From an uncultured delta proteobacterium (GTDB lineage: Bacteria; Desulfobacterota; Binatia; UBA9968): a stretch of DNA of 12,335 nucleotides. The number at the start of each line of letters is the position of its first letter. The stretch's first letter is position 1. The notes below the pieces were generated by a model. The model was not told the origin of the DNA and did no database searches. It was given only the letters and a program-made list of their open reading frames with translations. The position numbers and the translations under genes are program-made. Of this stretch, positions 1 through 12,335 are shown one piece after another. Where the stretch lies: assembly GCA_963816145.1 (NCBI GenBank), contig CAWFJP010000028.1:1-12335 (forward strand), read 5' to 3'.

Positions 1-639
1 TTCTCCAGCGGCAACAGCTTGCGAATATCGTCGAGGGTCGCGACGCCGCCCGAAGCGATGATGGGAATCTCTACGGCGCGGGCGATTTTCAAAGTCTCAT
101 CAAGATTGACGCCGTCTCGCGTTCCGTCGCGGCTGATGTCGGTGTAAATGATGCGCGCCGCGCCGTCCTGTTCGCACCGTTGAGCGAGCTCGACCGCCTC
201 CATGGCGGTGGTTTCTTTCCAGCCTTTGACCGCGACTTTGCCTTGGCGGGCGTCGATGCCGACGACGATCTTGCCAGGAAATTTTTTACACAGAGTTTGC
301 AGCAACGAGGCGTTGTCGTAGGCCGCGGTGCCGATGACCACCCGCGACACGCCTAAATCCAATGCGGCTTGGACCGCAGTCGACGGATCGCAGCCCGCCA
401 CCCAGTTCCACGGACAGACCGCCGACGCCGCAGATCGCGGCGACTTCCTCGGTATGCACCGGCCGGCCCTCCACGGCGCCGTTCAAGTCGACGATATGAA
501 GAAAAGTCGCGCCCTCGCCGCCCCAATGTTTAGCCGCGGCCACCGGATCTTCGAAGTAGACCGTTTCCTGATCCATGTCGCCTTGGAACAAGCGCACGCA
601 GCGGCCGTCCTTCAAATCGATGGCGGGAATGATCAACAT
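1..639 (-). CDS. hisA: HisA, ProFAR isomerase; 3'-partial at window edge, apparent 1-nt frameshift near 378
   Basis: N-terminus MLIIPAIDLKDGRCVRLFQG and HIVDLNGA, ELGGGLRS motifs. Removing one base at ~378 continues the frame as AVQAALDLGVSRVVIGTAA...IVVGIDARQGKVAVKGW...IIYTDISRDGT...IPIIASGGVATLDDI, open to position 1. Confidence 0.93.
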
Positions 640-646
640 AAGAATT

Positions 647-749
647 AAACAATGGAAAATGGATAATTGAAAATGGATAATTTAGGAATTCGAGGTTTCA
701 GACTTTGTCCGATAATTCTCAATTCTCCATTATCCATTATCAATTGTTT
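647..749. repeat. Inverted pair of heptamer tandem arrays forming a long imperfect hairpin between hisH and hisA
   Basis: Left arm 650-682 reads C AATGGAA AATGGAT AATTGAA AATGGAT AATT; right arm 714-746 reads AATTCTC AATTCTC CATTATC CATTATC AATTG. By hand, 27 of 33 positions are complementary, extendable by AAA/TTT. The right arm contains the hisH stop codon. Confidence 0.85.
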
Positions 750-1357
750 TCGACGAACCGCCCAAAGTTAGCAAGTATGCGCAGCCCAAGGTCTTGGCTC
801 TTCTCGGGATGAAACTGGCAGGCGAACAGACTATCGGTGGCGACGCTCGAAACAAACGATTGGCCGTAATCCGTGGTCGTAGCGACGATCGATCGATCTT
901 GCGGCGCGACGTAATATGAATGGACAAAATAAACATAGTCGCCGGTGGAGATACCGTCGAGAAACGGCGAGTCCTTCGCCTTGGCGATGCGGTTCCAGCC
1001 CATATGCGGCACCTTCAGATCGGCGCTGGGATGAAATCCCAATACTTTACCGGGGAATAGATCGAGCCCCTTCTGAGTGCCGAATTCTTCACTCTCCGAA
1101 AACAACAATTGAAATCCCAGACAAATCCCCAGAAACGGCTTTTTCTGCCGGACGATTTCTTGGATCGGTTCGATCAGGCCGAACTTGCCGAGGTTCTCCA
1201 TGCAGGCGCTAAAAGCACCGACCCCCGGCAACACAACGCCGCGCGCCGACTGAATCTGGCCAACATCGCGCGTTACCACCGCGTCGAAACCAACACGCTC
1301 CAAACCTTTCTGCACGCTGCGCAGATTCCCCATCCCATAGTCGATGATCGCGATCAT
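740..1357 (-). CDS. hisH: Imidazole glycerol phosphate synthase glutamine amidotransferase subunit HisH
   Basis: IDYGMGNLRSV, LPGVGAF, GICLGFQLL (catalytic Cys), VPHMGWN, YFVHSY, QFHPEKS motifs; 205 aa. Confidence 0.98.
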   Translation of the reverse strand: MIAIIDYGMGNLRSVQKGLERVGFDAVVTRDVGQIQSARGVVLPGVGAFSACMENLGKFGLIEPIQEIVRQKKPFLGICLGFQLLFSESEEFGTQKGLDLFPGKVLGFHPSADLKVPHMGWNRIAKAKDSPFLDGISTGDYVYFVHSYYVAPQDRSIVATTTDYGQSFVSSVATDSLFACQFHPEKSQDLGLRILANFGRFVENN

Positions 1358-1367
1358 ATTTTCTTAA

Positions 1368-1403
1368 TTGAAACGATTGGAACCCCTGGAACATTTGGAA
1401 CCA
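1368..1403. repeat. Four degenerate 9-nt tandem units in the hisB-hisH spacer
   Basis: TTGAAACGA TTGGAACCC CTGGAACAT TTGGAACCA. Confidence 0.75.
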
Positions 1404-1409
1404 GTCCGT

Positions 1410-1997
1410 TTAGAGACTCCCCTTAGTCGACAACACGCCCTGCACTCGCGGATCGACCTGGGTCGCGCAATCCATCGCCCGGGCGAAGGCCTTGAAGCAA
1501 GCTTCGATGATATGGTGCGGATTCTCGCCGCGCGGCACATCGATATGCAGGTTCATGCCCAACTGATTGGCGAACGCGGCAAAAAACTCATGGGGCAAGT
1601 CGGTGTCGAAATCGCCGACACGCCCTGGGCGAATCTTGACGTTGTACGAGAGATAGGGCCGGCCGCTGAGATCGACCACCACCTTGGCGAGCGTCTCGTC
1701 GAGCGGACAGCTGGCTTCACCGAAGCGGCGAATACCCGCCTTGTCGCCGAGCGCATCTTTGAACGCCTGCCCCAAGGCAAGGCCGACATCTTCCACTGTG
1801 TGGTGATAGTCGACTGCCAAATCGCCCTTGGCCTGGATGTTAATGTTGAAAAAACCATGGCGGCTAAAGGCGTCGAGCATATGGTTGAAAAACGGCATGC
1901 CGGTTTCGATGGCCGCTTGGCCGCTGCCGTCGACGTCCAGATTGATCGTGATGTCGGTTTCTTTCGTTTTCCGCGCAACCTTCGCCGTCCGTCCCAT
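1410..1997 (-). CDS. hisB: Imidazoleglycerol-phosphate dehydratase (monofunctional)
   Basis: [24 protein letters not shown] and [16 protein letters not shown] metal-binding signatures, C-terminal STKGSL; no phosphatase domain. Confidence 0.98.
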
Positions 1998-2020
1998 AAT
2001 TCACTCCCGTTTTGATTTCC

Positions 2021-2041
2021 AACTCGAAACTAGAAACTATT
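2021..2041. repeat. Short heptamer tandem at the hisD-hisB junction, overlapping the hisD stop
   Basis: AACTCGA AACTAGA AACTATT; only three units. Confidence 0.5.
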
Positions 2042-3326
2042 TCTTAAACCGCACTTCCACCGAGCGCGCATGATCGTCCAAGCCTTCCAACCGCGCCAGA
2101 TGGGTGATTTTCGATGCCAACGCTTTAAGGCCGCGCCGCTCGGCGTGGATGATCGTCGTCCGCTTGAGAAAATCATAGGTGCCCAAGGGTGAAAAAAACC
2201 GCGCGCTGCCGCCGGTCGGCAGCACATGATTGGGCCCAGCGAGATAATCGCCCAAGGGCGGCGCCGAATAAGGGCCGAGAAACATCGCCCCGGCGTTGCG
2301 GATCTGCCGCGCCACCTTCTCAGGCTGCCGCACCAACAGTTCGATATGCTCGGGGGCGATGGTGTTAGCCAGCTCGATCATATCTTTTTGCCCGCGCGCG
2401 ACGATGATCGCGCCGTACTTTTGCAGCGAGCGCAGGGAGATCGCCTGGCGCTTGGTGCTCAGCAGCTGCTGTTCCACGGCCTTTTGAATTTTCCGCGCCA
2501 CGGCCATTGACGTCGTCACGCAGAGCGCCGCAGCCAACTCATCATGCTCGGCCTGCGACAGCATATCCGCTGCCACATGAGCCGGATCAGCGGAATCATC
2601 GGCCAAAAGTAAAATCTCGCTCGGCCCGGCGATGGAATCGATATTCACTTCGCCGAACACCATCCGTTTGGCCGTGGCGACGAAGATATTCCCCGGCCCG
2701 ACGATCTTATCGACCTTGGGAATCGTCCGCGTGCCAAAAGCCAACGCGGCGATCGCCTGCGCGCCGCCGATGCGAAAGATTCGATCGACCCCAGCCACAT
2801 GGGCAGCGGCAAGAATAATCGCGCCGTCGACGCCGATGGGCGAAGTCATGACGATCTCTTTGACGCCGGCGACTTTGGCCGGAATCGCATTCATCAACAC
2901 CGTCGACGGATAGGAAGCCTTGCCGCCGGGGACATAGACACCGACCCGTTCGAGAGGCGTAATCCGCTGCCCGAGCACCATTCCCAGCGGATCGCGATAC
3001 TGCCAGCTTTTGACCATCTGACGGCGATGAAAGGCCTCGATGCGTTTGGCGGCAAGTCGCAAGACGGATAAGTCTTTGCGCGAAACTTGCGCGACGGCAG
3101 CGGTGATCTCGGCGGCCGTCACTTCCAGCGTCGCCGCGCGCAAGCGCACATGATCGAACTGCGCCGTATAGCGCAGCACCGCGCGGTCGCCCTGGCGCTG
3201 CACCGCGGTAACGATTTCTTCGACGCGCTTTTCGACATCGCCGGCACGCGTGCCGCGGCGCCCGAGGATTTTCGCCAGTAAGGGCTTAAAGCCGGAATCG
3301 GAAGTTTTTACTAGTCGAATTTTCAT
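2037..3326 (-). CDS. hisD: Histidinol dehydrogenase
   Basis: GVYVPGGKASYPSTVLM, GGAQAIAALAFGT, KIVGPGNIFV, IDSIAGPSE, LSQAEHD, APEHIEL, GDYLAGPNHVLPT motifs. Confidence 0.99.
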   Translation of the reverse strand: MKIRLVKTSDSGFKPLLAKILGRRGTRAGDVEKRVEEIVTAVQRQGDRAVLRYTAQFDHVRLRAATLEVTAAEITAAVAQVSRKDLSVLRLAAKRIEAFHRRQMVKSWQYRDPLGMVLGQRITPLERVGVYVPGGKASYPSTVLMNAIPAKVAGVKEIVMTSPIGVDGAIILAAAHVAGVDRIFRIGGAQAIAALAFGTRTIPKVDKIVGPGNIFVATAKRMVFGEVNIDSIAGPSEILLLADDSADPAHVAADMLSQAEHDELAAALCVTTSMAVARKIQKAVEQQLLSTKRQAISLRSLQKYGAIIVARGQKDMIELANTIAPEHIELLVRQPEKVARQIRNAGAMFLGPYSAPPLGDYLAGPNHVLPTGGSARFFSPLGTYDFLKRTTIIHAERRGLKALASKITHLARLEGLDDHARSVEVRFKK

Positions 3327-3347
3327 ACTACCTGTGAGAATTTCCGT

Positions 3348-3374
3348 CCTTGAACCGTTGAACCTTGAACCGTT
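3348..3374. repeat. 7/8-nt tandem repeat at the murA-hisD junction
   Basis: CC TTGAACCG TTGAACC TTGAACCG TT, immediately downstream of the murA stop. Confidence 0.7.
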
Positions 3375-3376
3375 CT

Positions 3377-4645
3377 TTATCCCGCGACGCGATCAATCTG
3401 CGCGCCCAGTTGGCAAAGCTTCTTTTCAATCTGTTCGTAACCGCGGTCGAGATGATAGACGCGGGCCACTTCGGTGCTGCCACTGGCGACCAGACCGGCG
3501 AGCACCAGCGCCACACTGGCGCGCAAGTCGCTCGCCATCACCGGAGCGCCGGACAGTTCTCTGACGCCGCGCACCACTGCGCGATTGCCTTCGAGCTTGA
3601 TATCGGCGCCCATGCGGTCGAGCTCGGGCACATGCATGAAGCGATTCTCGAAAATCGTCTCGGTGATCACGCTCACACCATCGGATACCGCCATCAGCAC
3701 CATCATCTGCGCCTGCAAGTCGGTGGGAAAACCGGGATAAGGCAAGGTCTTCACATCGACACTCTTGATCCTGCTGCCGCCGCGCACATGGATGCCGCCG
3801 TCGTCGCTCTTCCAGATGACGCCGGCTTCACGGAGCTTGATCAAGAAAGCTTCGAGATGATCGGCGCGCGCGCCCTTGACGTAGACATCGCCGCCACTGA
3901 GCGCCGCAGCGATAATGAAACTGCCGGCTTCGATGCGGTCGGGAATAATTCGGTGGTCTAAACCATGCAATGCGCTCACACCATCGATCCGAATCACATC
4001 GGTACCGGCACCGTGAACTTGCCCGCCCATGGCATTGAGCGCTTTTGCCAGGTCTTCGATTTCCGGCTCTTTGGCGGCGTTTTCAATCACCGTGGCGCCC
4101 TCGGCGAGGGCCGCCGCCATCATGAGATTTTCCGTGGCGCCGACCGACGGCAAGTCTAGATAAATTTTTGCGCCGCGCAGTTTGGTGGCCCGAGCTTCGA
4201 CATAACCATGGGTCTGTTCGATGGTCGCGCCGAGCGCTTCCAAGCCCTTCAAATGCAAATCGATGGGGCGCGCGCCGATGGCGCAACCGCCCGGTGTCGA
4301 CACCCGCGCCCGGCCGAAGCGCGCCACCAGCGGACCGATGACCAAGAACGACGCGCGCATGGTCTTGACCAATTCGTAGGGCGCTTCGAACTTGTCGATG
4401 CGGTCGGCTTGCAGGGTGAGATCGTCGGCGCCGCTGCGCCAGCGCTGGTGCTCGCCCTTCCCGCCGAGGCCGCCGAGCAATCTCAAAATTGTTCGAATAT
4501 CGGCGAGATGGGGCACGCTCCGATAGCTGCAAGGCTCGGCGGTGAGCAGCGATGAAATCAATGTCGGCAGCGCCGCGTTCTTCGAACCGCTGACAGCGAT
4601 CTCGCCGTTCAAGCGTTTGCCGCCTTGTATGACGATCTTATCCAC
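3377..4645 (-). CDS. murA: UDP-N-acetylglucosamine 1-carboxyvinyltransferase
   Basis: [34 protein letters not shown] (active-site Cys type), [36 protein letters not shown]; GTG start. Confidence 0.99.
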
Positions 4646-4657
4646 TTGATCGCTTCC

Positions 4658-5569
4658 TTAGCTTTTGCCAGGTTCAGCCAAAATCACCCGATCGCGCCCG
4701 GCATAATCCTGAAATATTTCGATCGATCGATACCGCCCGGTTTCGCCGCAAAGCGCCGAAACCGCGCCGGCCATATCGGCGCCGATCTCCAGTGCCAGCC
4801 CCCCCTGCTCGGTTAAATAGTCGGGAGCGGCAGCGGCAATCCGCCGGTAAAAATCGAGGCCGTCGACGCCGCCGTTCAACGCCACGCGCGGCTCCCACCG
4901 GCTCACTTCCGGTGCCAGCGCACCGATTTCGCTACATCGCACATAGGGCGGATTGCTGACGATCAGATCGAATCGAACCGCCGCGCCCGGCGCCAGCGCT
5001 TCGAACAGATCGGCGGTGAAAAATTGCATCCGCGCCGCCACATGATGGGCCTCGGCGTTGCCTCGCGCGATGGCCAAAGCTGCGGGCGAAATATCCGTGG
5101 CGCAGACTTGCGCCGACGGCAACTCGCGCGCCAAAGCGATTGCCACCGCGCCGCTGCCGGTGCACAGGTCAGCGATCCGCAGCGTTTTGGAAGCCGGGAA
5201 GCGCGCTGCGCCTAAGAGCGCGACTTCAACCAAGCGCTCGGTATCCGGTCGCGGAATCAACACATCCGGCGTCACCGTAAAATCGAGCGACCAGAACTCC
5301 TGCGTGCCGGTGATGTAAGCGACCGGTTCCCGGCTTAAACGCCGTTGCAGCAAAGTTTCAAAGCGCTGCGCCGCTGCCGGAGCGCTCAGCCAAGCGCCGG
5401 CAACCAGTAACTGCTCGCGGCTCATGTTCAAACAATGCGCCAGCAACACTTCGGCATCGAGGCGAGGGTTATCAATCCCGCCGGCAGACAAACGCGCCGC
5501 CGCGAGCATCAGCTGGTCGCGCACGCGCCGCCCACCCGCTTCGTTGGCTATGTTGGCAAGCCCGTCCAT
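4658..5569 (-). CDS. prmC: Release factor glutamine methyltransferase PrmC/HemK
   Basis: EPVAYITG, LIPRPDTE, DLCTGSGAVA (SAM-binding) and SNPPY motifs; directly downstream of prfA. Exact start uncertain. Confidence 0.96.
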   Translation of the reverse strand: MDGLANIANEAGGRRVRDQLMLAAARLSAGGIDNPRLDAEVLLAHCLNMSREQLLVAGAWLSAPAAAQRFETLLQRRLSREPVAYITGTQEFWSLDFTVTPDVLIPRPDTERLVEVALLGAARFPASKTLRIADLCTGSGAVAIALARELPSAQVCATDISPAALAIARGNAEAHHVAARMQFFTADLFEALAPGAAVRFDLIVSNPPYVRCSEIGALAPEVSRWEPRVALNGGVDGLDFYRRIAAAAPDYLTEQGGLALEIGADMAGAVSALCGETGRYRSIEIFQDYAGRDRVILAEPGKS

Positions 5570-5582
5570 TGCCGCATGCTGC

Positions 5583-6638
5583 CTACTTGAGCGCCTGAGC
5601 CTGGTAGTGAGTGATCAAAGCGTCGACCACTTCGTCGATCTGCCCCTCCATCACCCGCTCAAGCTGGTAAATCGTCAAATTGATCCGATGATCGGTCAAC
5701 CGCCCCTGAGGGAAATTATAGGTCCGAATGCGCTCGCTGCGGTCGCCGCTGCCGACCATCGATTTTCTTGTCGCGGCGATTTCGGATGCCTGTTCGTCCT
5801 GTTTCTTTTCGAGCAAGCGCGCGCGCAAGATCTTCATGCCCTTGGCACGATTTTTGTGCTGAGACTTTTCGTCTTGGCAGGAAATCACGATACCCGTGGG
5901 GATGTGGGTAATACGCACCGCCGAATCGGTAGTGTTGACGCTCTGGCCGCCCGGACCTGATGAACGAAAGACATCGATGCGAAGCTCCTTCGGATCGATG
6001 GCGATTTCCACCTCATCGGCTTCCGGCAACACCGCGACGGTTACCGCCGAGGTGTGAATGCGTCCCGACCCCTCGGTCACCGGCACGCGCTGCACCCGAT
6101 GCACGCCGCCTTCAAACTTGAGCCGGCTATACGCACCCTGGCCTTCGATGCTGAGGATGATTTCTTTATAGCCGCCCAAACCGGTGGGATTGGAACTCAT
6201 CATCTCGACGCGCCAACCGCGCGACTCGGCGTAGCGCGAGTACATACGAAATAGTTCCGCCGCGAACAAAGCCGCCTCGTCGCCGCCGGTGCCGGCACGA
6301 ATTTCGACGATGACGTTCTTCGCGTCGTTGGGATCTTTTGGCAGAATCAGATACTTGAGCTTGGTTTCGAGGGCCTCTTTGCGCTCGCGTAGATTCGTCA
6401 GCTCTTCCTTGACCAACTCGCGCATCGCTTCGTCGTTTTCATCCATGAGCTGGCGGTTGTCGGCGATCTCTTGCTCGACCTTGCGCCACTCGCGGTAGCA
6501 AACGACGATCTCTTCGAGATCGGAGCGCTCCTTGGCGACCTTGGCATACTCGCGTTGTTGTCCAACCATTTGCGGGTCGGACATCATGCCTTCGAGTTCG
6601 ATATAGCGCTTTTCGACTTCGAGTAATTTATCAAGCAT
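5583..6638 (-). CDS. prfA: Peptide chain release factor 1
   Basis: [23 protein letters not shown] (PxT RF1 motif), SGPGGQSVN (GGQ), [12 protein letters not shown]. Confidence 0.99.
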
Positions 6639-6724
6639 AACTGCGCGTCACTTCACGGCCGGACTATTCGTGCCGACTACGGTCAAACGAGTTTCCCGCT
6701 CCGCCAACCCCCCCTCAGACGAAA

Positions 6725-6765
6725 TAAAAAAGGGCAAAGGGTTGCGAACATGCCCTTTGCCCTTT
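6725..6765 (-). terminator. Intrinsic terminator downstream of rpmE
   Basis: 13-bp perfect stem AAAGGGCAAAGGG (6729-6741) / CCCTTTGCCCTTT (6753-6765), 11-nt loop, ending in TTTTTTATTT on the minus strand. Confidence 0.85.
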
Positions 6766-6801
6766 CTTGTCGCGTTAAAGCCTTCTAGGTCAAATTCAGC
6801 C

Positions 6802-7023
6802 TCAGCCCTCCGCCGGGTTTTGGTTCTGGATGCCGTATTTCTTGCGGAACTTTTCTACCCGGCCGGCGGTGTCGACCAATTTTTGTTTACCGGTAAAGAA
6901 CGGATGGCAATTGGAGCAAATTTCCACGTGGATGTTGCCCACCGTCGAGCGCGTCTCGGTGACATTTCCGCATGCGCAAGTGACCTTAGCCGGCTTATAT
7001 TCTGGATGAATTCCTGCCTTCAT
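6802..7023 (-). CDS. rpmE: 50S ribosomal protein L31, Zn-binding type A
   Basis: [35 protein letters not shown]; SD-like GAGAGG upstream. Confidence 0.98.
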
Positions 7024-7045
7024 GATTACCTCTCAATGGTCGAGT

Positions 7046-7074
7046 TTTATAACATATCGTCTGGAGGGCTTCAA
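7046..7074 (-). promoter_or_regulatory. Putative sigma70 promoter for rpmE
   Basis: Minus strand TTGAAG (7074-7069), 17 nt, TATAAA (7051-7046), with an extended -10 TG. Confidence 0.65.
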
Positions 7075-7138
7075 TTGGCATAACCCGACAAGCCAAAGTC
7101 CGCGATTCAAGACAATTTCGACCTCGCCATGGAATCGA

Positions 7139-7167
7139 TTGCCAAAAAAGGCGTAAGCTCATAAAAT
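7139..7167 (+). promoter_or_regulatory. Putative sigma70 promoter for the AAA+ ATPase (divergent from rpmE)
   Basis: TTGCCA (7139-7144), 17 nt, TAAAAT (7162-7167). Confidence 0.6.
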
Positions 7168-7241
7168 ACCTCGCATAGCATGGATTAGAAAGACGTAACC
7201 CCAATCATCGGCCAGAGGAAATAGAAAAGGGCAGGAAATCT

Positions 7242-8525
7242 ATGAGCAAGCCAGAACCGACTCAAACCGAAAAACCCGATATCGTTCCGTCCGTCGCACT
7301 AACGGTCGAGAACACCGGCCTCGACTTTGGTTTTCTCGCCGACCTGGCGCTGAAAACCGTCTACGCCGACGCCAATTGCACCACCGAGCGCGCCGCCGAT
7401 AAGATGAAACTCACCATGCCGGTGGTCGAAGAGCTGCTCCAGCACTTATATCGCGAAAAGTTCGTCGAGGTTCGCGGTTTGATCAGCTACGGTAACAACC
7501 GCTACGGCATGCTCGACCGCGGCTGGCAGCGCGCCCAGCAGCTTCTCGGGTTAAACGGTTACATAGGCCCGGCGCCGGTATCGCTGTCCGACTATACCCA
7601 CTCGGTATTGCGGCAAAGCGCCGCGCGCGAATCGATCCAACCCGGCGCCGTGCGCGATGCGATGTCCAACCTGGTATTACCGGAAGACAGCATTCAAACC
7701 CTTGGCTTGGTCGCCAGCTCCAGGCGCAGCCTATTCATGACCGGCCCCGCCGGCAATGGTAAGACCACCATCGCCCTGGCGCTGCATCAAGCCCAGCAGG
7801 GCGAGATCTGGATCCCTTATGCCATCGAGGTCGACGGCCAGATCATCAAAGTATTCGACCTGCACAATCATCAACCTGTCGCCGTCGCCGGCATCGGCCG
7901 CTACGATGAACGTTGGGTTCGGGTCAAGCGGCCGATCATCGTCGTCGGCGGCGAAATGACCATCGACACGATGGATCTGATTTACAGCCAGACTGCGCGC
8001 TTCTACGAAGCGCCATTTCAGATGAAATCCAACGGCGGCACGCTGGTCATCGACGATTTCGGCCGCCAACGGGTCGACCCGCATGATTTGCTCAACCGCT
8101 GGATTGTGCCCCTCGAAGGCAAGGTCGACTATCTGACTCTGCACACCGGCAAAAAGATCGAAGTGCCCTTCGAGCAGCTGCTGATCTTCGCCACCAACCT
8201 GGACCCCGACGACCTAGTCGATGACGCCTTCCTGCGCCGCATGGGCTATCGTCTCTACGTCAACCCGCCGGACAAGGAAATGTACGCCAGGATTTTCAAG
8301 CAATACGTCGAATCGAACGGCTTTGGATACGACCCTAAGTATCTCGATTTCGTGTACCGGCTCTATGACGCCGACAAACGACCGCTGCGTGCCTGCGAAC
8401 CGCGCGACCTGATGCTGCGCTGCGCCGATCATTGCAAGTACGAGAATCTGCCCAAGGCCCTCTCCAACGATATCATTCTGCTGGCCTGGAGGAACTATTT
8501 TGGTGCCGCGCCAACTATTCAATAG
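7242..8525 (+). CDS. Uncharacterised AAA+ family ATPase with an N-terminal extra domain
   Basis: 427 aa; Walker A GPAGNGKT, Walker B-like LVIDDFGRQ, sensor-1 FATN, Arg-finger AFLRRM; SD-like AGGA upstream; host-like codon usage. Confidence 0.88.
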   Translation: MSKPEPTQTEKPDIVPSVALTVENTGLDFGFLADLALKTVYADANCTTERAADKMKLTMPVVEELLQHLYREKFVEVRGLISYGNNRYGMLDRGWQRAQQLLGLNGYIGPAPVSLSDYTHSVLRQSAARESIQPGAVRDAMSNLVLPEDSIQTLGLVASSRRSLFMTGPAGNGKTTIALALHQAQQGEIWIPYAIEVDGQIIKVFDLHNHQPVAVAGIGRYDERWVRVKRPIIVVGGEMTIDTMDLIYSQTARFYEAPFQMKSNGGTLVIDDFGRQRVDPHDLLNRWIVPLEGKVDYLTLHTGKKIEVPFEQLLIFATNLDPDDLVDDAFLRRMGYRLYVNPPDKEMYARIFKQYVESNGFGYDPKYLDFVYRLYDADKRPLRACEPRDLMLRCADHCKYENLPKALSNDIILLAWRNYFGAAPTIQ

Positions 8526-8548
8526 AGGCGTCGAGAGAGCAAAAAACC

Positions 8549-9220
8549 ATGCATGTCGCACTACCCATGTGCCGTTGGGTTTTTCTTAGCTTCGCCCTCT
8601 GGTCGCCAACCGGCTGTAACGCTACCGAGCTAGTCTCGGAACATGCCTTCAAAGAAAAAGTCGAACGGCTGCGGGTCGGCTAGACCAACCGCGCTGAGAT
8701 CGAAGCACTGCTCGGCGCGGCTCAAGTGGTCGAGCGTAATCGCCTGACCTATTATTTTGCCGACACCGAATTTGGCGTCGGCATCCGCCGCTACACACCG
8801 CCCAGCGGCGCGCTGCCAATCAATGCCGGCGCTTTCCCCAGTATTACTCGGGGTGTCGTGTCATAACCGTCGGATTCAATGACGCGGGAAATCTTAAACG
8901 AGTTGCGGTCGAGCGCTACTTCGACCCGCCGATCCTCAACACCTATGCGTATTCGATCAAAAATGCCGCCAAGGAGCAACCTTCGACGCAGTCGAAAGGA
9001 TCGACGCGGCCAACAGTTTCATAACCGTGGACCTGAGCAAAGAAACTGGCACGGTGACGCCGCAGGACAACGAAAGCAAAGATTGGCGTCAAACTTACCG
9101 GCGAAACCCTCGCCCAACTTCCAAGAACCCGCACAGCCGGCTCGCCCCGAATACCCCCTCTACATCAAGCGCGAAACCAATCTCACCACCGCTATCGCTA
9201 GCGTGGACTAGTTGCGTTGA
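8549..9220 (+). pseudogene. Decayed exported/lipoprotein gene with a BamE/SmpA-like N-terminal segment
   Basis: Signal-like start ending in ...ALWSPTGC; KVERLRVG*TNRAEIEALLG with an in-frame TAG at 8681-8683. A GTGTC tandem duplication (8853-8862) shifts the frame, and its removal restores RGVITVGFNDAGNLKRVAVERYF. Further apparent shifts near 8980 and 9080-9150. Confidence 0.6.
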
Positions 9221-9670
9221 CTGAACGCACAGAGCTGCATTATCAAACTAAAAATTCAGATTTAGAAACTTGGTGGAGGCAGTGAGACAGCGTAAAGAAC
9301 CGCTTCTACAAGTGTCCTTCACTCTGAGTTGAAAAGTCGGCACAGCTATCCGATCGTTCCGGGCGAGACCCCACCCTATCGAATCCCGCTGCACATAGCA
9401 CCTAAAACTCATACAATTCAAATTGTTATATACATGCAACACCACCGTAAAAACAACACTTGAAGACAGCGATATCAATCAGTGCGCGAGCCCTGACACC
9501 GAAGTATAAGATGCAACGGTTAAATCTCGCGGATTTGTTAGATCGCTTGTAAATAAAGACTTTGAATCCTGGGCCAAAGAGAGTTCCGGCATGCTTGTTT
9601 TTTTATGTCGCCGAAGTCATATCGCTAACACCGACGGTAATGCAATTCCCAACATACCTCCTCTAATGTC

Positions 9671-9960
9671 GATGCGGCCGTACCGGTCAGTGCTCTCGTA
9701 GGTAGCCGTGACGATTTTTCCAACACAGAGATCGCAGAGCGCTTCTCTCGCTTAGATGCCGTAAGTCTGGCGCCGCTCGGGCGCGTCAATTTCAGCGAGA
9801 CGGATGCGCACTTGTTTTTTCTCCTCGGTGAGTATGGGGAGCGTGTCGCCGTCGGCGATAGCGACGAAGCGGCCAGCGAGTTGGCGCACCTCAGCGTCGA
9901 TTACTCGTAACGGGAGAAACGGCCAGCAGACAAAACAAACACAAGACCAGCTTTGGTCAT
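9671..9960 (-). pseudogene. Thermonuclease (SNase-like) gene remnant
   Basis: [12 protein letters not shown]...[45 protein letters not shown] shows the DGDT, RLxxIDAPE and DRYGR motifs. In-frame TAA at 9752-9754; similarity is lost after DRYGR. Confidence 0.85.
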
Positions 9961-10395
9961 CGCCTGGAAATAGCAGTCGCGTCGGTTTCTGAAAAGAGTT
10001 GAAGAGGGGGGGGTTTAGGCATTTTGACAACTGAAGCGATCGCAAGACAAACGTTTCGCGCACAATTGGCTTATAACGAACGCTAGCGAGTTGAGCCTTG
10101 ATCGAATGACTAGGGACTCTGTCGGCGGGACAGTTCTCTTATTCCTTGTAGGTATTTCTCTTTGAGAAAATCGACGGCTAATTTTTCATCGATACTTTTT
10201 CGGTTTCGAGCGCCGTTGCTTTGGATTCTTCGAGTCGGTCAGAACCTGATTGGTGCTCGTCGGGTTTTCAGAGCCCGGCATGGTTCACCTTCCCATCGAT
10301 CATGAGTCTGCCAAACATCAGAACATTCCGGGGACACTTTGACCCTATGGGCTGTTTGCGACATCTATCTAGACATAGGGGGCTTCCTGCTCCAA

Positions 10396-10430
10396 GACCA
10401 GAAGTCAGAGATTAGGTATCGGAAGTCTGC
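10396..10430. repeat. Degenerate heptamer array (AGTCAGA-like)
   Basis: GACCAGA AGTCAGA GATTAGG TATCGGA AGTCTGC. Confidence 0.5.
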
Positions 10431-10440
10431 GTAACGCATG

Positions 10441-10489
10441 GAATTTCGGATTTCGAACGTCGGATTTCGGATTTTCAATTTCGGATTTA
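10441..10489. repeat. Seven-unit heptamer tandem array, consensus GGATTTC
   Basis: GAATTTC GGATTTC GAACGTC GGATTTC GGATTTT CAATTTC GGATTTA. Confidence 0.85.
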
Positions 10490-10509
10490 TGGATCCAACC
10501 CGAAAAGAC

Positions 10510-10560
10510 TTCACCGCAGAGAACGCTGAGGGCACTGACTAAACTGCTAAGGGCTAAGAG
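10510..10560. repeat. Short degenerate nonamer run followed by a heptamer doublet
   Basis: TTCAC CGCAGAGAA CGCTGAGGG CACTGACTA, then GCTAAGG GCTAAGA. Confidence 0.45.
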
Positions 10561-10602
10561 CGACACCGCCGGGTTTGAGTCTTCGAAATGAGATCTGCCA
10601 GT

Positions 10603-10974
10603 TTACGACTGAGATACCGGGACTGCTCTCTGGACCCAGATTGCAATGTTTCGGCAAATACGGCGTAACCTATCGGCATTGATCTCGCCAATTGCTCCCA
10701 ATAAGACATCCGCTCCCACGACGGCTAATCGTCCGACGCGTATAACACTGGCAGATTTAAGCCCAGAAATTTGGAAGTCGCCTTCCGTCGGCTCCAAGAT
10801 TTCGTCGAATCCTTCGACGGCGTGTTGAAGCTGAGTAGAAATCATCGCAATAAGCCAGTCTTCGTAAGGTCCCGGCACAGGAGCGAGAAGGAGAACTGGG
10901 CGGGGTTTACCCGGAGTTAAATCCGTGTGAGGGAATCGCAACAGAGCGATTTGTCCCGCTTGCCTCACCGCCAC
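10603..10974 (-). CDS. Type II toxin, PemK/MazF family endoribonuclease
   Basis: GQIALLRFPHTDLTPGKPRPVLLL, IAMIST, GLKSASVIRVGRL and IGEI match the PemK/MazF pattern. The start may be the GTG at 10968 (GTGA overlap with the upstream stop). Confidence 0.88.
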   Translation of the reverse strand: MAVRQAGQIALLRFPHTDLTPGKPRPVLLLAPVPGPYEDWLIAMISTQLQHAVEGFDEILEPTEGDFQISGLKSASVIRVGRLAVVGADVLLGAIGEINADRLRRICRNIAIWVQRAVPVSQS

Positions 10975-11177
10975 TTCTCCTTAAAATCTCCCTCGCTATA
11001 TTCCGGGCCTAGTTCGTCTTCTAATCCCCGCAGCGCCGCGTGCAATGATAATTCTGACCAGTCGGAGTCTTCTTGGCGAAGCTTAAGCGCAAGACGTTCG
11101 ACGAATTCTAGCACTTCGCGTTGCAACGGATCTGGCAGGGCCTTGACCTTTTGATAAATACGATCAACCGTTTCCAT
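10965..11177 (-). CDS. Putative antitoxin, DUF2281-like (70 aa)
   Basis: METVDRIYQKVKALPDPLQREVLEFVERL plus an acidic C-terminal tail; overlaps the toxin start. Start reassigned from 11354 to the ATG at 11177. Confidence 0.8.
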   Translation of the reverse strand: METVDRIYQKVKALPDPLQREVLEFVERLALKLRQEDSDWSELSLHAALRGLEDELGPEYSEGDFKEKWR

Positions 11178-11253
11178 GTTCAGTTTTCCCGACGAGGACC
11201 TCTTGAACTTTCTTCTACAGTAACATGAGAGACTACCATACCGCCAACCGCTT

Positions 11254-11426
11254 GGATTCGGGGGTTGGGATTCAGGTTTTGGGTGTCGGGTAATCGGGTT
11301 CGGGTCTTGGGTATGAGCCATCGTACCCACCGAAGTGTTCAGCCTACCGGGCACTCTTCAATCTAAAACCGAACACCCATCACCCATTACCCACAACCCG
11401 ACACCCAACACCTAAGACCCACACTC
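11254..11426. repeat. Inverted pair of ~9-unit heptamer arrays between the two divergent TA operons
   Basis: Left 11254-11316: GGATTCG GGGGTTG GGATTCA GGTTTTG GGTGTCG GGTAATC GGGTTCG GGTCTTG GGTATGA. Right 11364-11426: TAAAACC GAACACC CATCACC CATTACC CACAACC CGACACC CAACACC TAAGACC CACACTC. Spacer is 47 nt. Confidence 0.88.
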
Positions 11427-11498
11427 CCTGCCAGCACCACTGCACTCCACTTGCAGAGTATTCGCGCAGGCTTTCGCCGCGCCGCCCCATTGCCGTGC

Positions 11499-11527
11499 TT
11501 GGCTGACTATATAAATTGTTATATACT
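11499..11527 (+). promoter_or_regulatory. sigma70 promoter with overlapping palindromic operator for the higBA-like operon
   Basis: TTGGCT (11499-11504), 17 nt, TATACT (11522-11527); perfect inverted repeat TATATAA-attg-TTATATA (11508-11525). Confidence 0.75.
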
Positions 11528-11532
11528 TTCTC

Positions 11533-11847
11533 ATTGCCGAAAAACCGGTAATCTGGTTGGGTTAGGCGCTCGACGACGTTCGAGCCTTTCCCGATGAAGC
11601 CAGCGTAGCGCCGGGCATGAGATCCATCTCGTGCAAATCGGTTTGGAACCTAGCGATTGGAAGCCGATGTCGAGCGTGGGTCCTGGTGTTATGGAATTGC
11701 GCATTCATAGCCAACTTGAGCATCGAATTTTTACCTAGCCAAATTTGCCGAGGCGGTTTTCGTGATTCATGCGTTTCAGAAAAAAACGCGAAGCATGACA
11801 TAAACTTAGCCAAGCATCGATTAGCTGAAATGCTCCGGCAACGGTAG
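11533..11847 (+). pseudogene. HigB/RelE (Gp49-like) toxin pseudogene
   Basis: Reconstructed across frames: EKPVIWLG*ALDDVRAFPDEA / SAGHEIHLVQIGLEPSDWKPMSSVGPGVMELRIHSQLEHRIF / YLAKFAEAVFVIHAFQKKT / KHDINLAKHRLAEMLRQR. TAG at 11563-11565; frameshifts near 11602, 11730 and 11790. Confidence 0.88.
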
Positions 11848-11858
11848 GAGAAATTGTC

Positions 11859-12164
11859 ATGAAGATTAAAATGACTCGGTCCAGCGGCAATGTGTTTAAG
11901 GATCTGGGCTTCTCCGCCGAGGAAGCGGAGCATCTTAAGATCCGCTCCACTATGATGGCGCATCTGCGCGAACTTATCGCTAGTCGCGGTCTCACCCAGG
12001 CCGATGCCGCGGCCCTTCTCGGTGTCAGCCAACCGCGCGTCAGCGATCTTGTCCGAGGAAAAATCGATTTGTTTAGTATCGATACGTTGGTAGACATGCT
12101 GAATCACGCCGGAGTCAAGATTAAATTTACCTTAAGCGATAAATCGCGAAGCAGAGCAGCCTAG
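11859..12164 (+). CDS. XRE-family HTH antitoxin (HigA-like)
   Basis: SSGNVFKDLGF N-terminus, LTQADAAALLGVSQPRVSDLVRGKIDLFSIDTL helix-turn-helix; SD AGGAG; lies downstream of the toxin remnant. Confidence 0.93.
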   Translation: MKIKMTRSSGNVFKDLGFSAEEAEHLKIRSTMMAHLRELIASRGLTQADAAALLGVSQPRVSDLVRGKIDLFSIDTLVDMLNHAGVKIKFTLSDKSRSRAA

Positions 12165-12170
12165 CGGCGG

Positions 12171-12191
12171 GGTTCTAGGTTTTGGGTGGTA
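12171..12191. repeat. Three heptamer units of the same type as 11254-11316, just after the antitoxin stop
   Basis: GGTTCTA GGTTTTG GGTGGTA; shares AGGTTTTGGGTG exactly with 11274-11285. Confidence 0.65.
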
Positions 12192-12260
12192 GACAAACCT
12201 TGAAAAAATCAGACGCACAACATCGGCCGGCCAGGATCTGAACAAGATAGTCGGGTTGTC

Positions 12261-12291
12261 GAAGGCTGCCCCTAGAGGCCGACCTTCTTTT
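12261..12291 (+). terminator. Possible weak intrinsic terminator or REP-like hairpin
   Basis: GAAGGCTGCC-cctaga-GGCCGACCTTC followed by TTTT; imperfect stem. Confidence 0.35.
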
Positions 12292-12335
12292 GGAAGCGAT
12301 TTGCTATGAATGTAGACCTGACCCTCTGGGCCATC

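Follow-up and report, generated by a model that had tools for sequence, protein, structure and literature searches.

Intergenic tandem heptamers near gene ends are known from cyanobacteria as STRR heptanucleotide repeats, a published relative of the class examined here; STRR families are few in number, and to our knowledge no cargo genes have been described for them. REP, BIME and REPIN elements are short dispersed intergenic palindromes, often hairpin doublets, that follow genes within operons; mRNA stabilisation and mobilisation in trans by RAYTs have been proposed for them, they lack internal periodicity, and every family goes with a RAYT that the same REP flanks. The repeat class itself is already published, in accounts of Geobacter and of Xanthomonas and Nostoc. 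In Geobacter metallireducens, the "putative global regulator binding sites" (classes 1-3) and the Gmet_H4 heptanucleotide elements fall into several families, each present in dozens of copies; a site has three to five units of 7, 8 or 9 nt in tandem, and most sites are paired on opposite strands at variable distance (Aklujkar et al. 2009, PMC2700814). In Xanthomonas and Nostoc, the GGGNATC heptamer repeats have a single G-rich consensus and were read as G-quadruplexes (Rehm et al. 2015, PMC4692102), and the TAACTGA repeats of Beggiatoaceae lie just upstream of start codons, with one indirect set in 170 (MacGregor 2015, PMC4679880). In Coxiella burnetii, an S23p/IVP ORF lies in a stem-forming element of ~430 nt, the 23S rRNA intervening sequence (IVS), which has been called selfish and which RNase III excises from the transcript (Warrier et al. 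2016, PMC4990558).

The window analysed here is an entire 12.3-kb contig (12,335 nt) of a 7.8-Mb genome from soil or wetland, and arrays in it were detected with TRF and with our own periodicity scan. Each of the four junctions in murA-hisD-hisB-hisH-hisA has an array of period 7-9, such arrays also occur close to both toxin-antitoxin (TA) modules, and both methods confirmed that the periodic repeats which a sequence-only reading had noticed at gene junctions are real, although two of its consensus units, AGTCAGA and CGCAGAGNN, were recovered by neither. Our scan gave 10 matches, six of them within the 3,579 non-coding bases, compared with 1.0 on average and 4 at most in 200 first-order shuffles of the whole window. 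Both inverted pairs of the window fold into long hairpins, with 0/200 shuffles as good as either, and the unpaired arrays showed no fold above shuffles (z -0.5 to +0.8). The features are as follows.

646..746, minus strand: hisH>hisA hairpin module with tandem heptamer arms (TRF, own scan, fold)
1367..1401, minus strand: hisB>hisH unpaired array, period 9, about four units (own scan)
2016..2039 (called at 2021-2039), minus strand: hisD>hisB short unpaired array, period 7, TAGTTTC (TRF, own scan)
3348..3374, minus strand: murA>hisD unpaired array, period 7/8, GTTCAAG/GTTCAACG, three units (TRF)
10443..10488, no strand assigned: unpaired ATTTCGG array, period 7, 6.6 units (TRF, own scan)
10603-10974, minus strand: MazF/PemK-like toxin (Pfam PF02452 at 1.3e-7)
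10965-11177, minus strand: DUF2281/VapB-like antitoxin (PF10047 at 2.7e-5)
11240..11421, no strand assigned: large hairpin module (TRF, own scan for 11352-11421, fold)
within 11566..12164, fragment 11598-11738, plus strand: degraded HigB/Gp49-like toxin frame of 46 aa (PF05973 at 1.9e-4, under cut-off)
11859-12164, plus strand: intact HTH_37 HigA-like antitoxin (PF13744 at 3.6e-23)
12165..12190, plus strand: weak GGGTTNT-type array directly past the HigA-like stop codon, seen by eye only

The hisH>hisA module is a gene-less hairpin. Its arms read GATAATG and GAGAATT on the gene strand, corresponding to an inverted pair of period-7 arrays at 651-682 and 714-745 of the plus strand; the closing bases of hisH, stop codon included, form its first unit, CAATTGA, and its loop starts with ATCGGAC. 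The module folds at -28.6 kcal/mol (z -4.16), and 55 places in the genome are related to it. Among 14 congeners, the junction is compact (2-4 nt) and devoid of the module in seven, with an AATTGA-family hairpin in three, a TGCAAAA-family hairpin in two and another insert in two. The remaining three his arrays are half-modules, none of which folds (z -0.33 at hisD>hisB, +0.79 at hisB>hisH and -0.12 at murA>hisD), and two of them recur in most congeners. The first TAGTTTC unit at hisD>hisB contains the hisD stop codon; similar AGTTT arrays were found in about five congeners and a compact junction of 15-19 nt in seven. The hisB>hisH unit is GTTCCA followed by three variable bases on the mRNA strand (GTTCCANNN on the gene strand), and the murA>hisD array begins 3 nt past the murA stop. 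On the sense strand, GTTC[AC]A occurred at least twice at hisB>hisH in 12 of 17 congeners and in 0/12 genomes of other families, and at murA>hisD in 10 of 17 congeners and in 0/12 outgroups. These two arrays are resident elements and not the vacant sites that had been proposed. Likewise, the small genes that had been predicted to sit at murA-his junctions of relatives did not appear, since no recognisable one was found in any such junction of 17 congeners (a 220-nt insert in G005 and G013 was left unannotated). HisD identity drops to 76% across the genus in which the GTTCAA/GTTCCA core recurs at his junctions. A sequence-specific binding factor would account for this recurrence no less well than a structural role would. 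As for transcription, one RNA-library contig (X17, 3338-3539) spans the murA stop and the array, a weak observation given that the contigs are assembled and DNA carry-over is possible, and another (X15, 3029-3374) ends at the array, although assembled contigs cannot show transcript ends.

The modules are strongly non-random genome-wide and lie near stop codons. When arrays of at least three copies were counted against a third-order Markov shuffle of the genome, more than 650 intergenic arrays were found versus about 40 in the shuffled genome; together with the excess in the window, these counts put the arrays far above chance. By period, 326 intergenic and 82 genic arrays (period 7), 106 and 29 (period 8), and 225 and 85 (period 9) were counted versus 17, 15 and 10 after shuffling, the genic and intergenic tallies being approximate because our home-made codon-usage gene caller misses small genes. 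These arrays comprise 103, 48 and 116 distinct units for periods 7, 8 and 9, with median copy numbers of 4.3, 3.4 and 3.8, respectively. Array density per kb of spacer was 0.61 in co-directional, 0.49 in convergent and 0.17 in divergent spacers, and the median array starts 21 nt past the stop. Within 10 nt of a stop, period-7 arrays carried stops in all three frames in 34/121 cases on the sense strand versus 7/121 on the antisense strand. Array pairs no more than 200 nt apart were inverted in 118 cases and direct in 4, and the loop was shorter than 40 nt in 177 of 320 inverted pairs. The purine-rich version of a unit is nearly always the 5' arm (CACGAAG in 94 pairs versus 0, GTTCAA in 28 versus 0, GTTCCA in 19 versus 7), and for unpaired arrays the purine-rich strand was the sense strand in 78 cases versus 32, a bias of about 2:1 that is not absolute. 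Furthermore, TCGGA/TCCGA was enriched 9-10-fold in loops, and the 94 paired copies of the CACGAAG family have a common loop design, TTCGGA-(AT-rich)-TCCGAA.

Like the G. metallireducens sites, the repeats here are tandem 7-9-mers in opposite-strand pairs and in multiple families. Far fewer families are reported there, however, than the 100-plus units of this genome, and the part of the G. metallireducens account that concerns these sites describes no small-gene cargo, comparison of orthologous junctions or stop-codon placement. Unlike the GGGNATC repeats as described, most units here are without G-tracts and hairpin pairing dominates; only the arm at 11240-11310 resembles a G-quadruplex former. 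With STRR and with the TAACTGA repeats, as published, they share the form of intergenic tandem heptamers close to the ends of genes, two to six copies at a time and patchily distributed among lineages, but TAACTGA repeats are almost never inverted and lie on the start-codon side, whereas the arrays here lie past stops and are often paired; the description of the TAACTGA repeats names no cargo genes.

The same module frame also encloses IVP or GxxExxY genes in its loop. In this genome, an array lies no more than 150 nt from each of the eight IVP (PF05635) genes and each of the five GxxExxY genes; arrays stand on both sides of 5/8 IVP genes versus 19/2,098 small genes, and for 26 of 27 IVP genes sampled from congeners the complementary periodicity of the flanks exceeds the 99th percentile of a null. 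The link to these two gene families that the sequence-only reading had suggested holds in this genome. PF05635 is also the family of the Avd protein. Arm units vary from copy to copy, indicating that the common feature is structure rather than sequence, as had been suggested. One arm-gene-arm unit was copied as a unit: an alignment of 506 nt with 85.6% identity joins IVP4 to IVP5, and its homology stops at the outer arm ends. No IVP arm-gene-arm unit lies within the window; those of this genome measure 440-520 nt and, similar in size to the C. burnetii IVS, hold a small PF05635-family ORF inside a stem-forming element. The described C. burnetii IVS lies in helix 45 of 23S rRNA, whereas the units here lie between protein-coding genes and, unlike it, have arms of tandem 7-9-mers that differ at every locus.

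Orthologous junctions, which had been proposed as a check on the arrays, are not invariant among relatives: modules have been gained, lost and exchanged, the direction of each change being read without a species tree. The states found across congeners are a compact junction, a gene-less hairpin, a hairpin with gene and another arm family. Arms co-vary between orthologues; at one junction, TAGGCAA arms in the present genome (G000) and AGGCNTG arms in G017 surround the same IVP gene, so that both sides have changed. In G003 and G004, one junction without an IVP cassette has no arms at all. Cargo-bearing modules also decay into gene-less hairpins that keep the same arms. At a GxxExxY junction, CACGAAG arms enclose the full gene in G000, G007, G009, G006, G016 and G005 (in G012 as inferred from a contiguous match), a partly deleted gene in G008 and a 39-nt loop in G003, and 13 genomes have a gene-less hairpin with TGGAGTNN arms, degenerate in two (G014 and G038).

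The TA genes of the window merely sit in strain-specific DNA that also contains such modules. The whole stretch 8526-12335 is accessory as one block, and its left edge bears no array. The MazF-like TA module (10603..11177; NF050009 at 1e-5, under its cut-off) is outside the repeat system. The ATTTCGG array lies 115 nt downstream of the MazF-like gene without a significant fold (z +0.21). The module at 11240-11421 lies 63 nt upstream of the antitoxin start and is a gene-less hairpin: its degenerate G-tract heptamer arm of GGGTTNG type (11240-11310) pairs, per fold, with its period-7 complement (11352-11421) at -89 kcal/mol (z -4.05). The array at 12165-12190 was called by neither TRF nor our scan and does not fold (z -0.54). 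Genome-wide, an array lay within 150 nt of only 1/21 PIN/PemK toxins, versus 204/2,098 small genes, and on both sides of 0/21. This association test refuted the TA modules as occupied cassette sites.

According to the sequence-only reading, the arrays mark where single-gene cassettes of an insertion/excision system end or have left scars, with the his junctions empty and the two TA modules occupied. One part of that reading stood, namely that IVP and GxxExxY genes are cargo. Cargo-bearing modules indeed vary among congeners, the IVP4/IVP5 duplication terminates at the arms, G003 retains arms without the gene, and hisH>hisA hairpin modules are present or absent among congeners. The TA modules and the empty his sites did not stand, however: besides the toxin counts, the arrays flanking MazEF are not complementary, no TA gene lies in the loops of 23 inverted pairs 200-1100 nt apart, the accessory block has a left edge without array, the murA-his junctions of 17 congeners show no recognisable small gene, and the IVP-free orthologous junction lacks arms. 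The domain search of the window yielded no mobilising enzyme, and four public runs yielded no excision product. As that reading had stated, no transposase or integrase domain was present in the 21 ORFs of the window, nor in 25 stop-to-stop frames of 8369-12335, and the circular or empty-site joints it had expected in reads were seen at no array border in the four runs. We consider the cassette model as a whole improbable. Still less credible is a REPIN-like origin with mobilisation in trans by RAYTs (REP-associated tyrosine transposases), although the CACGAAG family with its shared loop would suit it, the genome encodes three long Y1-transposase proteins, and the two that were scanned resemble RAYTs (NF047646, 74 and 66 bits), each flanked by an inverted repeat. 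Both scores fall under the 80-bit cut-off, the flanking repeats (GGGTCA...) are a different family of about 4-9 copies, so that no REP-style link between RAYT and module was found in this genome, no arrays lie near three IS200-like copies, and dozens of arm families are too many for three genes.

The arrays might instead be neutral and without function, produced when slippage and template switching occur during replication of non-coding DNA, as long simple-sequence repeats within which small genes are tolerated. More than 100 unrelated units, homogenised within an array and shifting in concert between species, agree with such an origin, as do first units that the upstream gene end can supply (CAATTGA at hisH; GGCAAGTAGGC compared with TAGGCAA) and the sense-strand excess of three-frame stops, which is expected if arrays were seeded on stop codons. 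Array length, however, is tightly held at about four units whatever the period, divergent spacers are depleted 3.5-fold, arm order is fixed, arm complementarity is maintained across species, cores recur genus-wide at his junctions, and the loop motif is enriched, all of which makes the neutral account unlikely. We are also doubtful that the arrays are binding sites of oligomeric proteins that recognise specific DNA or RNA sequences: equally many specificities would be needed for the more than 100 different units, and arm co-variation preserves pairing, not sequence. Nevertheless, orthologous his junctions retain on their sense strand a 6-base core with variable spacer bases, an array of four or so units would suit an oligomer, and such roles have been proposed for look-alikes, in the descriptions of "global regulator binding sites" (Aklujkar et al., PMC2700814) and of a post-transcriptional regulator (MacGregor, PMC4679880).

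The arrays probably belong to a class of intergenic repeat-armed hairpin modules that is spread across the genome and would act in RNA. Three of the four his arrays are left unexplained by a hairpin role, being unpaired and without fold; these would be half-modules. A unit of the proposed module would consist of a conserved 6-base core and 1-3 variable bases, with about four tandem units of 7-9 bases to an array. A full module would comprise a 5' arm, a loop usually of 20-40 nt and an inverted arm, folding to a 25-40-bp hairpin, and would begin at or shortly past a stop codon, inside the transcription unit. At the DNA level, modules would arise and turn over by slippage together with inverted copying or recombination. 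In RNA, the hairpins would act as intercistronic or 3'-end structures, where, by analogy with REP elements and with the stems that intervening sequences form in 23S rRNA, they may be RNase III or exonuclease-barrier elements.

The window is the whole of contig C28 (12,335 bp) in a genome of 7.82 Mb (31 contigs, about 56% G+C), and its repeats lie among the following genes.

3-401 and 286-639, minus strand: hisA, in two overlapping frames that both match PF00977
740-1357, minus strand: hisH
1410-1997, minus strand: hisB
2037-3326, minus strand: hisD
3377-4645, minus strand: murA
4658-5569, minus strand: prmC
5583-6638, minus strand: prfA
6802-7023, minus strand: rpmE
7242-8525, plus strand: ATPase-like gene, 427 aa
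10603-10974: MazF/PemK-like toxin
10965-11177: DUF2281/VapB-like antitoxin, paired with the MazF/PemK-like toxin
11566-11847: HigB/Gp49-like toxin frame, broken; one 46-aa piece matches PF05973, below the cut-off
11859-12164: HTH_37 HigA-like antitoxin, intact

The split of hisA at 286-401 implies a single-base frameshift near 360-400. The tandem-repeat caller TRF and a periodicity scan together recovered arrays of 7- to 9-nt units at 651-682, 714-745, 1367-1401, 2021-2039, 3348-3374, 10443-10488, and 11352-11421; folding revealed a degenerate partner of the last one at 11240-11310, and a weak array at 12165-12190 was recognised by eye alone. The arrays listed by the sequence-only reading were in this way confirmed, except for the units AGTCAGA and CGCAGAGNN, which neither TRF nor the periodicity scan recovered in the window. 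As had been stated, an array occupied each of the four his junctions (murA>hisD, hisD>hisB, hisB>hisH, and hisH>hisA), and three of the four began at, or at most 3 nt from, the upstream stop codon. The two inverted pairs noticed earlier were also borne out by folding (z of -4.16 and -4.05); the unpaired arrays did not fold. The periodicity scan gave 6 matches within the 3,579 non-coding bases of the window, compared with a mean of 1.0 in first-order shuffles of the whole window. For the window alone this result is modest, and its arrays are ordinary members of a repeat class found throughout the genome. A G-quadruplex reading of the arrays was rejected, as it was plausible solely for the GGG-containing arm at 11240-11310 and most units in the genome are without G-tracts. 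Downstream of rpmE, at 6716-6770, TRF called a further 7-nt repeat; this is a terminator-like hairpin (AAAAAAGGGCAAAGGG...CCCTTTGCCCTTT) and not a periodic array.

Genome-wide, arrays of at least three copies exceeded chance by far. Against a null made by third-order Markov shuffling of the genome, we counted 326 intergenic and 82 genic arrays of period 7 (17 in the shuffle), 106 and 29 of period 8 (15 in the shuffle), and 225 and 85 of period 9 (10 in the shuffle). Summed over the three periods, 657 arrays were intergenic, versus 42 in the whole shuffled genome, the non-coding share being 18% of the genome by rough in-house gene calls. The distinct canonical units numbered 103, 48, and 116 for periods 7, 8, and 9, and the median copy numbers per array were 4.3, 3.4, and 3.8, respectively, or about 30 nt. 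Array density was 0.61 per kb in co-directional and 0.49 in convergent spacers, compared with 0.17 in divergent ones, and the median array started 21 nt past the upstream stop, demonstrating placement at stop codons. Among period-7 arrays that start no more than 10 nt from a stop, all three frames had stops on the sense strand in 34 of 121 cases and on the antisense strand in 7 of 121; the excess arises partly by construction, because many arrays include the gene's own stop.

Pairing was the dominant arrangement. Neighbouring arrays less than 200 nt apart were inverted in 118 cases and direct in 4, and of the 320 inverted pairs in a wider set, 177 had a loop shorter than 40 nt, showing that such a module, composed of a 5′ arm, a loop, and an inverted arm, has hairpin potential. 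The order of the arms was fixed: the form taken by the 5′ arm was CACGAAG in 94 versus 0 pairs, GTTCAA in 28 versus 0, and GTTCCA in 19 versus 7. Since a palindrome is identical on both strands, this order belongs to the module and not to gene orientation. The 94 paired copies of the CACGAAG family had a common loop design, and the window hairpin was related to 55 places in the genome. Furthermore, TCGGA/TCCGA was 9- to 10-fold enriched in hairpin loops across differing arm families (for instance, at 707-713 of the window). Outside the CACGAAG family this common loop motif occurred in 51 of 131 loops versus 13 expected, suggesting that the hairpin tip holds a recognition or nucleation motif common to the families. 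Among the 116 arrays that are clearly unpaired (half-modules), the sense strand was purine-rich in 78 versus 32 cases, a bias of about 2:1.

The sequence-only reading had suggested that similar tracts flank small sporadic genes, and this proved correct for two families. The genome carries eight PF05635 genes, encoding small proteins of the 23S rRNA intervening-sequence type (IVP), and five TIGR04256 (GxxExxY) genes, all scoring above cut-offs, and an array lay within 150 nt of all eight and all five. TRF arrays stood on both sides of 5 of the 8 IVP genes, compared with 19 of the 2,098 genes shorter than 600 nt. When the flanks were read, 7 of 8 IVP and 2 of 5 GxxExxY genes were located directly inside an inverted pair, and the remaining three GxxExxY genes were located between complete hairpins, demonstrating the link of these genes to the repeats. 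The arm unit differed at every copy. IVP genes occur in 29 of 31 genomes of the genus, at 0 to 11 copies per genome. When the best match in each congener was examined (n = 27), the flanks of 26 of 27 loci shared a complementary stretch that exceeded the 99th percentile in a null made from 300 small genes of the window's genome (25 of 26 without G005, an unpublished congener genome); the periodicity of these stretches was visible, and their units were of many types.

The IVP paralogues are 22-42% identical, hence old, with the exception of IVP4 and IVP5 at 90% amino-acid identity. The DNA of these two is 85.6% identical over 506 nt, from 38 nt before the start codon to 50 nt past the stop, which coincides with the outer arm ends. 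Duplication as a unit is thereby shown, and this span of homology is the best single piece of evidence that arm, gene, and arm are copied together. In a set of 23 inverted pairs with 200-1100 nt between the arrays, the loops held five IVP genes and one GxxExxY gene. Twelve further loop genes were scanned for families: eight were ordinary (glyoxalase, CMD, enoyl-CoA hydratase, dienelactone hydrolase, isochorismatase, cyclase, cupin, and response regulator), four had no family, and none of the 12 was of toxin-antitoxin (TA) type; in the remaining five pairs the loops hold ORFs longer than 300 aa. The ordinary genes in wide loops look like chance pairing of abundant arm families.

The claim that the TA modules of the window are occupied cassette sites had to be given up. 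The genome encodes 21 TA toxins (15 PIN and 6 PemK); only that of the window itself had an array within 150 nt and none had arrays on both sides, compared with 9.7% and 0.9%, respectively, in the small-gene null; moreover, the arrays to the left and right of the MazF-like module were not complementary. The link between TA modules and repeats is a coincidence. The HTH_37 antitoxin is orphaned, as the HigB/Gp49-like frame is broken and the antitoxin intact. These modules lie in a strain-specific end of the contig. The conserved gene stops at 8525 with no array at that edge; the 3.8 kb past this ATPase-like gene has sparse recognisable coding content, and DNA of 8526-12335 had a match in none of 30 congeners, except for the HigA region at a different locus of congener G017. 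Within it, 8526-9230 contains several overlapping frames of 60-114 aa without family match, a region missing from all 30 congeners searched, and these frames look like the wreck of a single larger gene. Cover of 8653-11536 was almost zero in four public runs (three RNA and one DNA, as assembled contigs). The plus strand has two identical copies of a 14-base motif, at 9420-9433 and at 11513-11526, and about 40 nt separate the latter from the degraded HigB-like frame downstream; none of 200 shuffles gave two matches. The motif may be an operator or promoter common to two TA-type modules, one no longer recognisable.

We then compared orthologous junctions among congeners, reading the directions of change without a species tree. 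At an IVP gene on contig C31 (position 553039), the arms are TAGGCAA in G000, the genome of the window, and AGGCNTG in G017 around the same gene. Both arms were altered together, demonstrating that arm complementarity is kept across species and bearing out the earlier view that structure matters over sequence. The orthologous junction in G003 and G004 is 35 nt long, with neither arms nor gene. At a GxxExxY gene on contig C14 (position 434367), CACGAAG arms and the full gene were found in G000, G007, G009, G006, G016, and G005, and were inferred for G012 from a contiguous match. In G008 the arms are kept and the gene is internally deleted; in G003 the arms enclose a 39-nt loop whose beginning is still similar to the sequence immediately inside the G007 arm, showing decay to gene-less forms. 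In G040, G004, G002, G018, G039, G037, G017, G015, G011, G031, and G032, this junction holds a hairpin that has no gene and whose arms, TGGAGTNN/ACTCCANN, are unrelated; the hairpin is present in degenerate form in G014 and G038. G003 and G004 are near-identical at C31:553039, yet carry different modules at C14:434367. For two other IVP loci the relatives gave less: the flanks of that on C30 were not syntenic in five close relatives, and C31:434758 had scattered partial matches only.

The his junctions varied as well. The hisH>hisA junction measured 2-4 nt in 7 of 14 congeners and in four readable outgroups; three congeners and G000 had a hairpin of the AATTGA/AATGGA family, two congeners had a hairpin with TGCAAAA arms, and G005 and G013 (loci L102 and L103) had about 220 nt of unrelated inserted DNA free of periodic repeats. 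At least two sense-strand GTTC[AC]A motifs occurred at murA>hisD in 10 of 17 and at hisB>hisH in 12 of 17 congeners (9 of 16 and 11 of 16 without G005), a recurrence that speaks against the proposal that the his arrays are vacant sites. At these two junctions the same motif test detected none on the antisense strand, and the motifs were absent from all 12 genomes of the order's other two families, in which the median junction lengths are 5 nt and 88 nt, respectively. Compared with G016, the murA>hisD array of G012 is interrupted by 240 nt of additional hairpin modules. A HisD search of genome contigs returned distant taxa only (best identity 57%). In outgroup loci L109-L117, the hisB>hisH and hisD>hisB junctions contain other GC-rich dispersed repeats, among them a CATTCCCGCG..AGCGGGAATCCAGGGG palindrome that recurs and units of about 35 nt in tandem; his junctions seem to gather repeats in several lineages. 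Compact, hairpin, cargo, and other-arm states thus differ at orthologous junctions, so that junctions are far from invariant, as had been anticipated, and modules behave as replaceable units. G005 enters 1 of 17 his-junction rows, 1 of 6 sequenced occupied GxxExxY junctions, 1 of 2 of the 220-nt inserts, and 1 of 27 IVP-flank tests, and none of the conclusions rests on it.

STRR repeats are known from cyanobacteria. Comparable repeats are described in Geobacter metallireducens as paired sites of 3-5 tandem 7-9-mers (PMC2700814), in Xanthomonas and Nostoc as GGGNATC heptamers that prefer four units and, on the coding strand, lie no more than 50 bp from a stop codon (PMC4692102), and in Beggiatoaceae as TAACTGA repeats (PMC4679880); the passages on the Geobacter, Xanthomonas, and Beggiatoaceae repeats propose functions and do not establish them (PMC2700814, PMC4692102, PMC4679880). 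The present arrays resemble the STRR/Xanthomonas-Nostoc/Geobacter class in their units of 7 (6-9) nt, few copies with about four preferred, strong non-coding excess over chance, location within about 50 nt of the stop, and preference for co-oriented gene pairs, and they resemble Geobacter classes 1-3 in the pairing of opposite-strand sites at variable distance. They differ from that class, in which one or a few consensus units dominate, in the number of unit families; this number, the dominance of hairpin pairs, and the IVP/GxxExxY link are what sets the arrays apart. In full-text searches, with the supplementary figures of the Geobacter paper outside the search, we found no published account of that link.

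The modules were also compared with several known systems. The CACGAAG family, a dispersed intergenic family of near-identical imperfect palindromes, is like REP/BIME/REPIN elements, which raises mobilisation by a RAYT transposase. The genome has six Y1 transposase genes, three IS200-like and three longer and RAYT-like, and the RAYT scan covered two of the three long proteins; the third long gene is on C18. Both scanned genes (L174, C3:258783-259766; L173, C29:1541-2473) encode a Y1-transposase domain plus a DnaA C-terminal-like region in 310-330 aa. They scored 74 and 66 bits, respectively, below the cut-off of 80, and each is flanked by an inverted repeat starting with GGGTCA, present in about 4-9 genome copies and unlike the arrays. 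RAYT mobilisation was rejected, as none of the six genes could be tied to the arrays; unlike REP/BIME/REPIN, no cognate RAYT flanked by matching repeats was found here. Integron cassettes depend on a tyrosine recombinase and an attC array; the present modules are instead single and scattered at operon junctions. The 21 ORFs and 25 further stop-to-stop frames of the window contain no recombinase domain and, as noted before, no transposase or integrase domain. For a MITE, no target-site duplication was evident at comparable filled versus compact junctions, and no cognate transposase was found. The 23S rRNA intervening sequence is described as a stem around an S23p/IVP ORF that is cut by RNase III (PMC4990558). 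Its likeness, a PF05635 ORF within a long stem, is seen elsewhere in the genome and genus and is absent from the window; unlike sequences inserted in 23S helix 25 or 45, all eight IVP genes lie between predicted genes (in-house calls, unannotated neighbours).

By analogy with the design of 23S rRNA intervening sequences, the modules may act in RNA. REP-type elements form mRNA 3′ structures of matching design. Contigs from RNA libraries cover parts of the operon and extend to or across the murA>hisD array, evidence that, coming from contigs, can neither show transcript ends nor exclude DNA. The first unit at hisH>hisA, CAATTGA, is how hisH ends by conservation, also where a genome has no module, and the TAGGCAA unit is similar to GGCAAGTAGGC, the gene end in G003 and G004, which have no module there. 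These likenesses to gene ends hint that local sequence might seed the arms or be their target; the hisH>hisA hairpins with TGCAAAA arms do not agree with such an origin. Excision or circular joints were not seen at array borders in the four runs (three RNA, one DNA), whose assembled contigs drop rare variants. Overall, the observation behind the sequence-only reading is confirmed and its interpretation partly supported: it holds for the structure-defined arms, the IVP/GxxExxY cargo, and the variable junctions, and fails for the TA modules and for the his arrays as vacant sites. The boldest reading is an undescribed mobile hairpin cassette defined by structure, in which arm-gene-arm units would be copied to positions after stop codons, arms rebuilt locally without fixed termini, and copies decay to hairpins and half-arrays, the cargo being the cassette's own nucleic-acid-handling factors. 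We regard it as rather improbable. If it were true, the cassette would be an mRNA-junction counterpart of rRNA intervening sequences, and its remnants would fill hundreds of junctions.

For annotation, the modules account for contig breaks and, at stop codons overlapped by an array, for odd C-terminal extensions. The PF05635 "IVS proteins" and GxxExxY proteins appear in the relevant passages as common small proteins of function not established (PMC8934634, PMC4990558), and the sole informative mention of GxxExxY that we found, in a passage of one paper, was incidental (PMC8934634). The near-obligate link of IVP and GxxExxY genes to the repeats, together with gain, loss, and swap at junctions and duplication as a unit, provides a joint testable handle on both problems, the repeats and the proteins.
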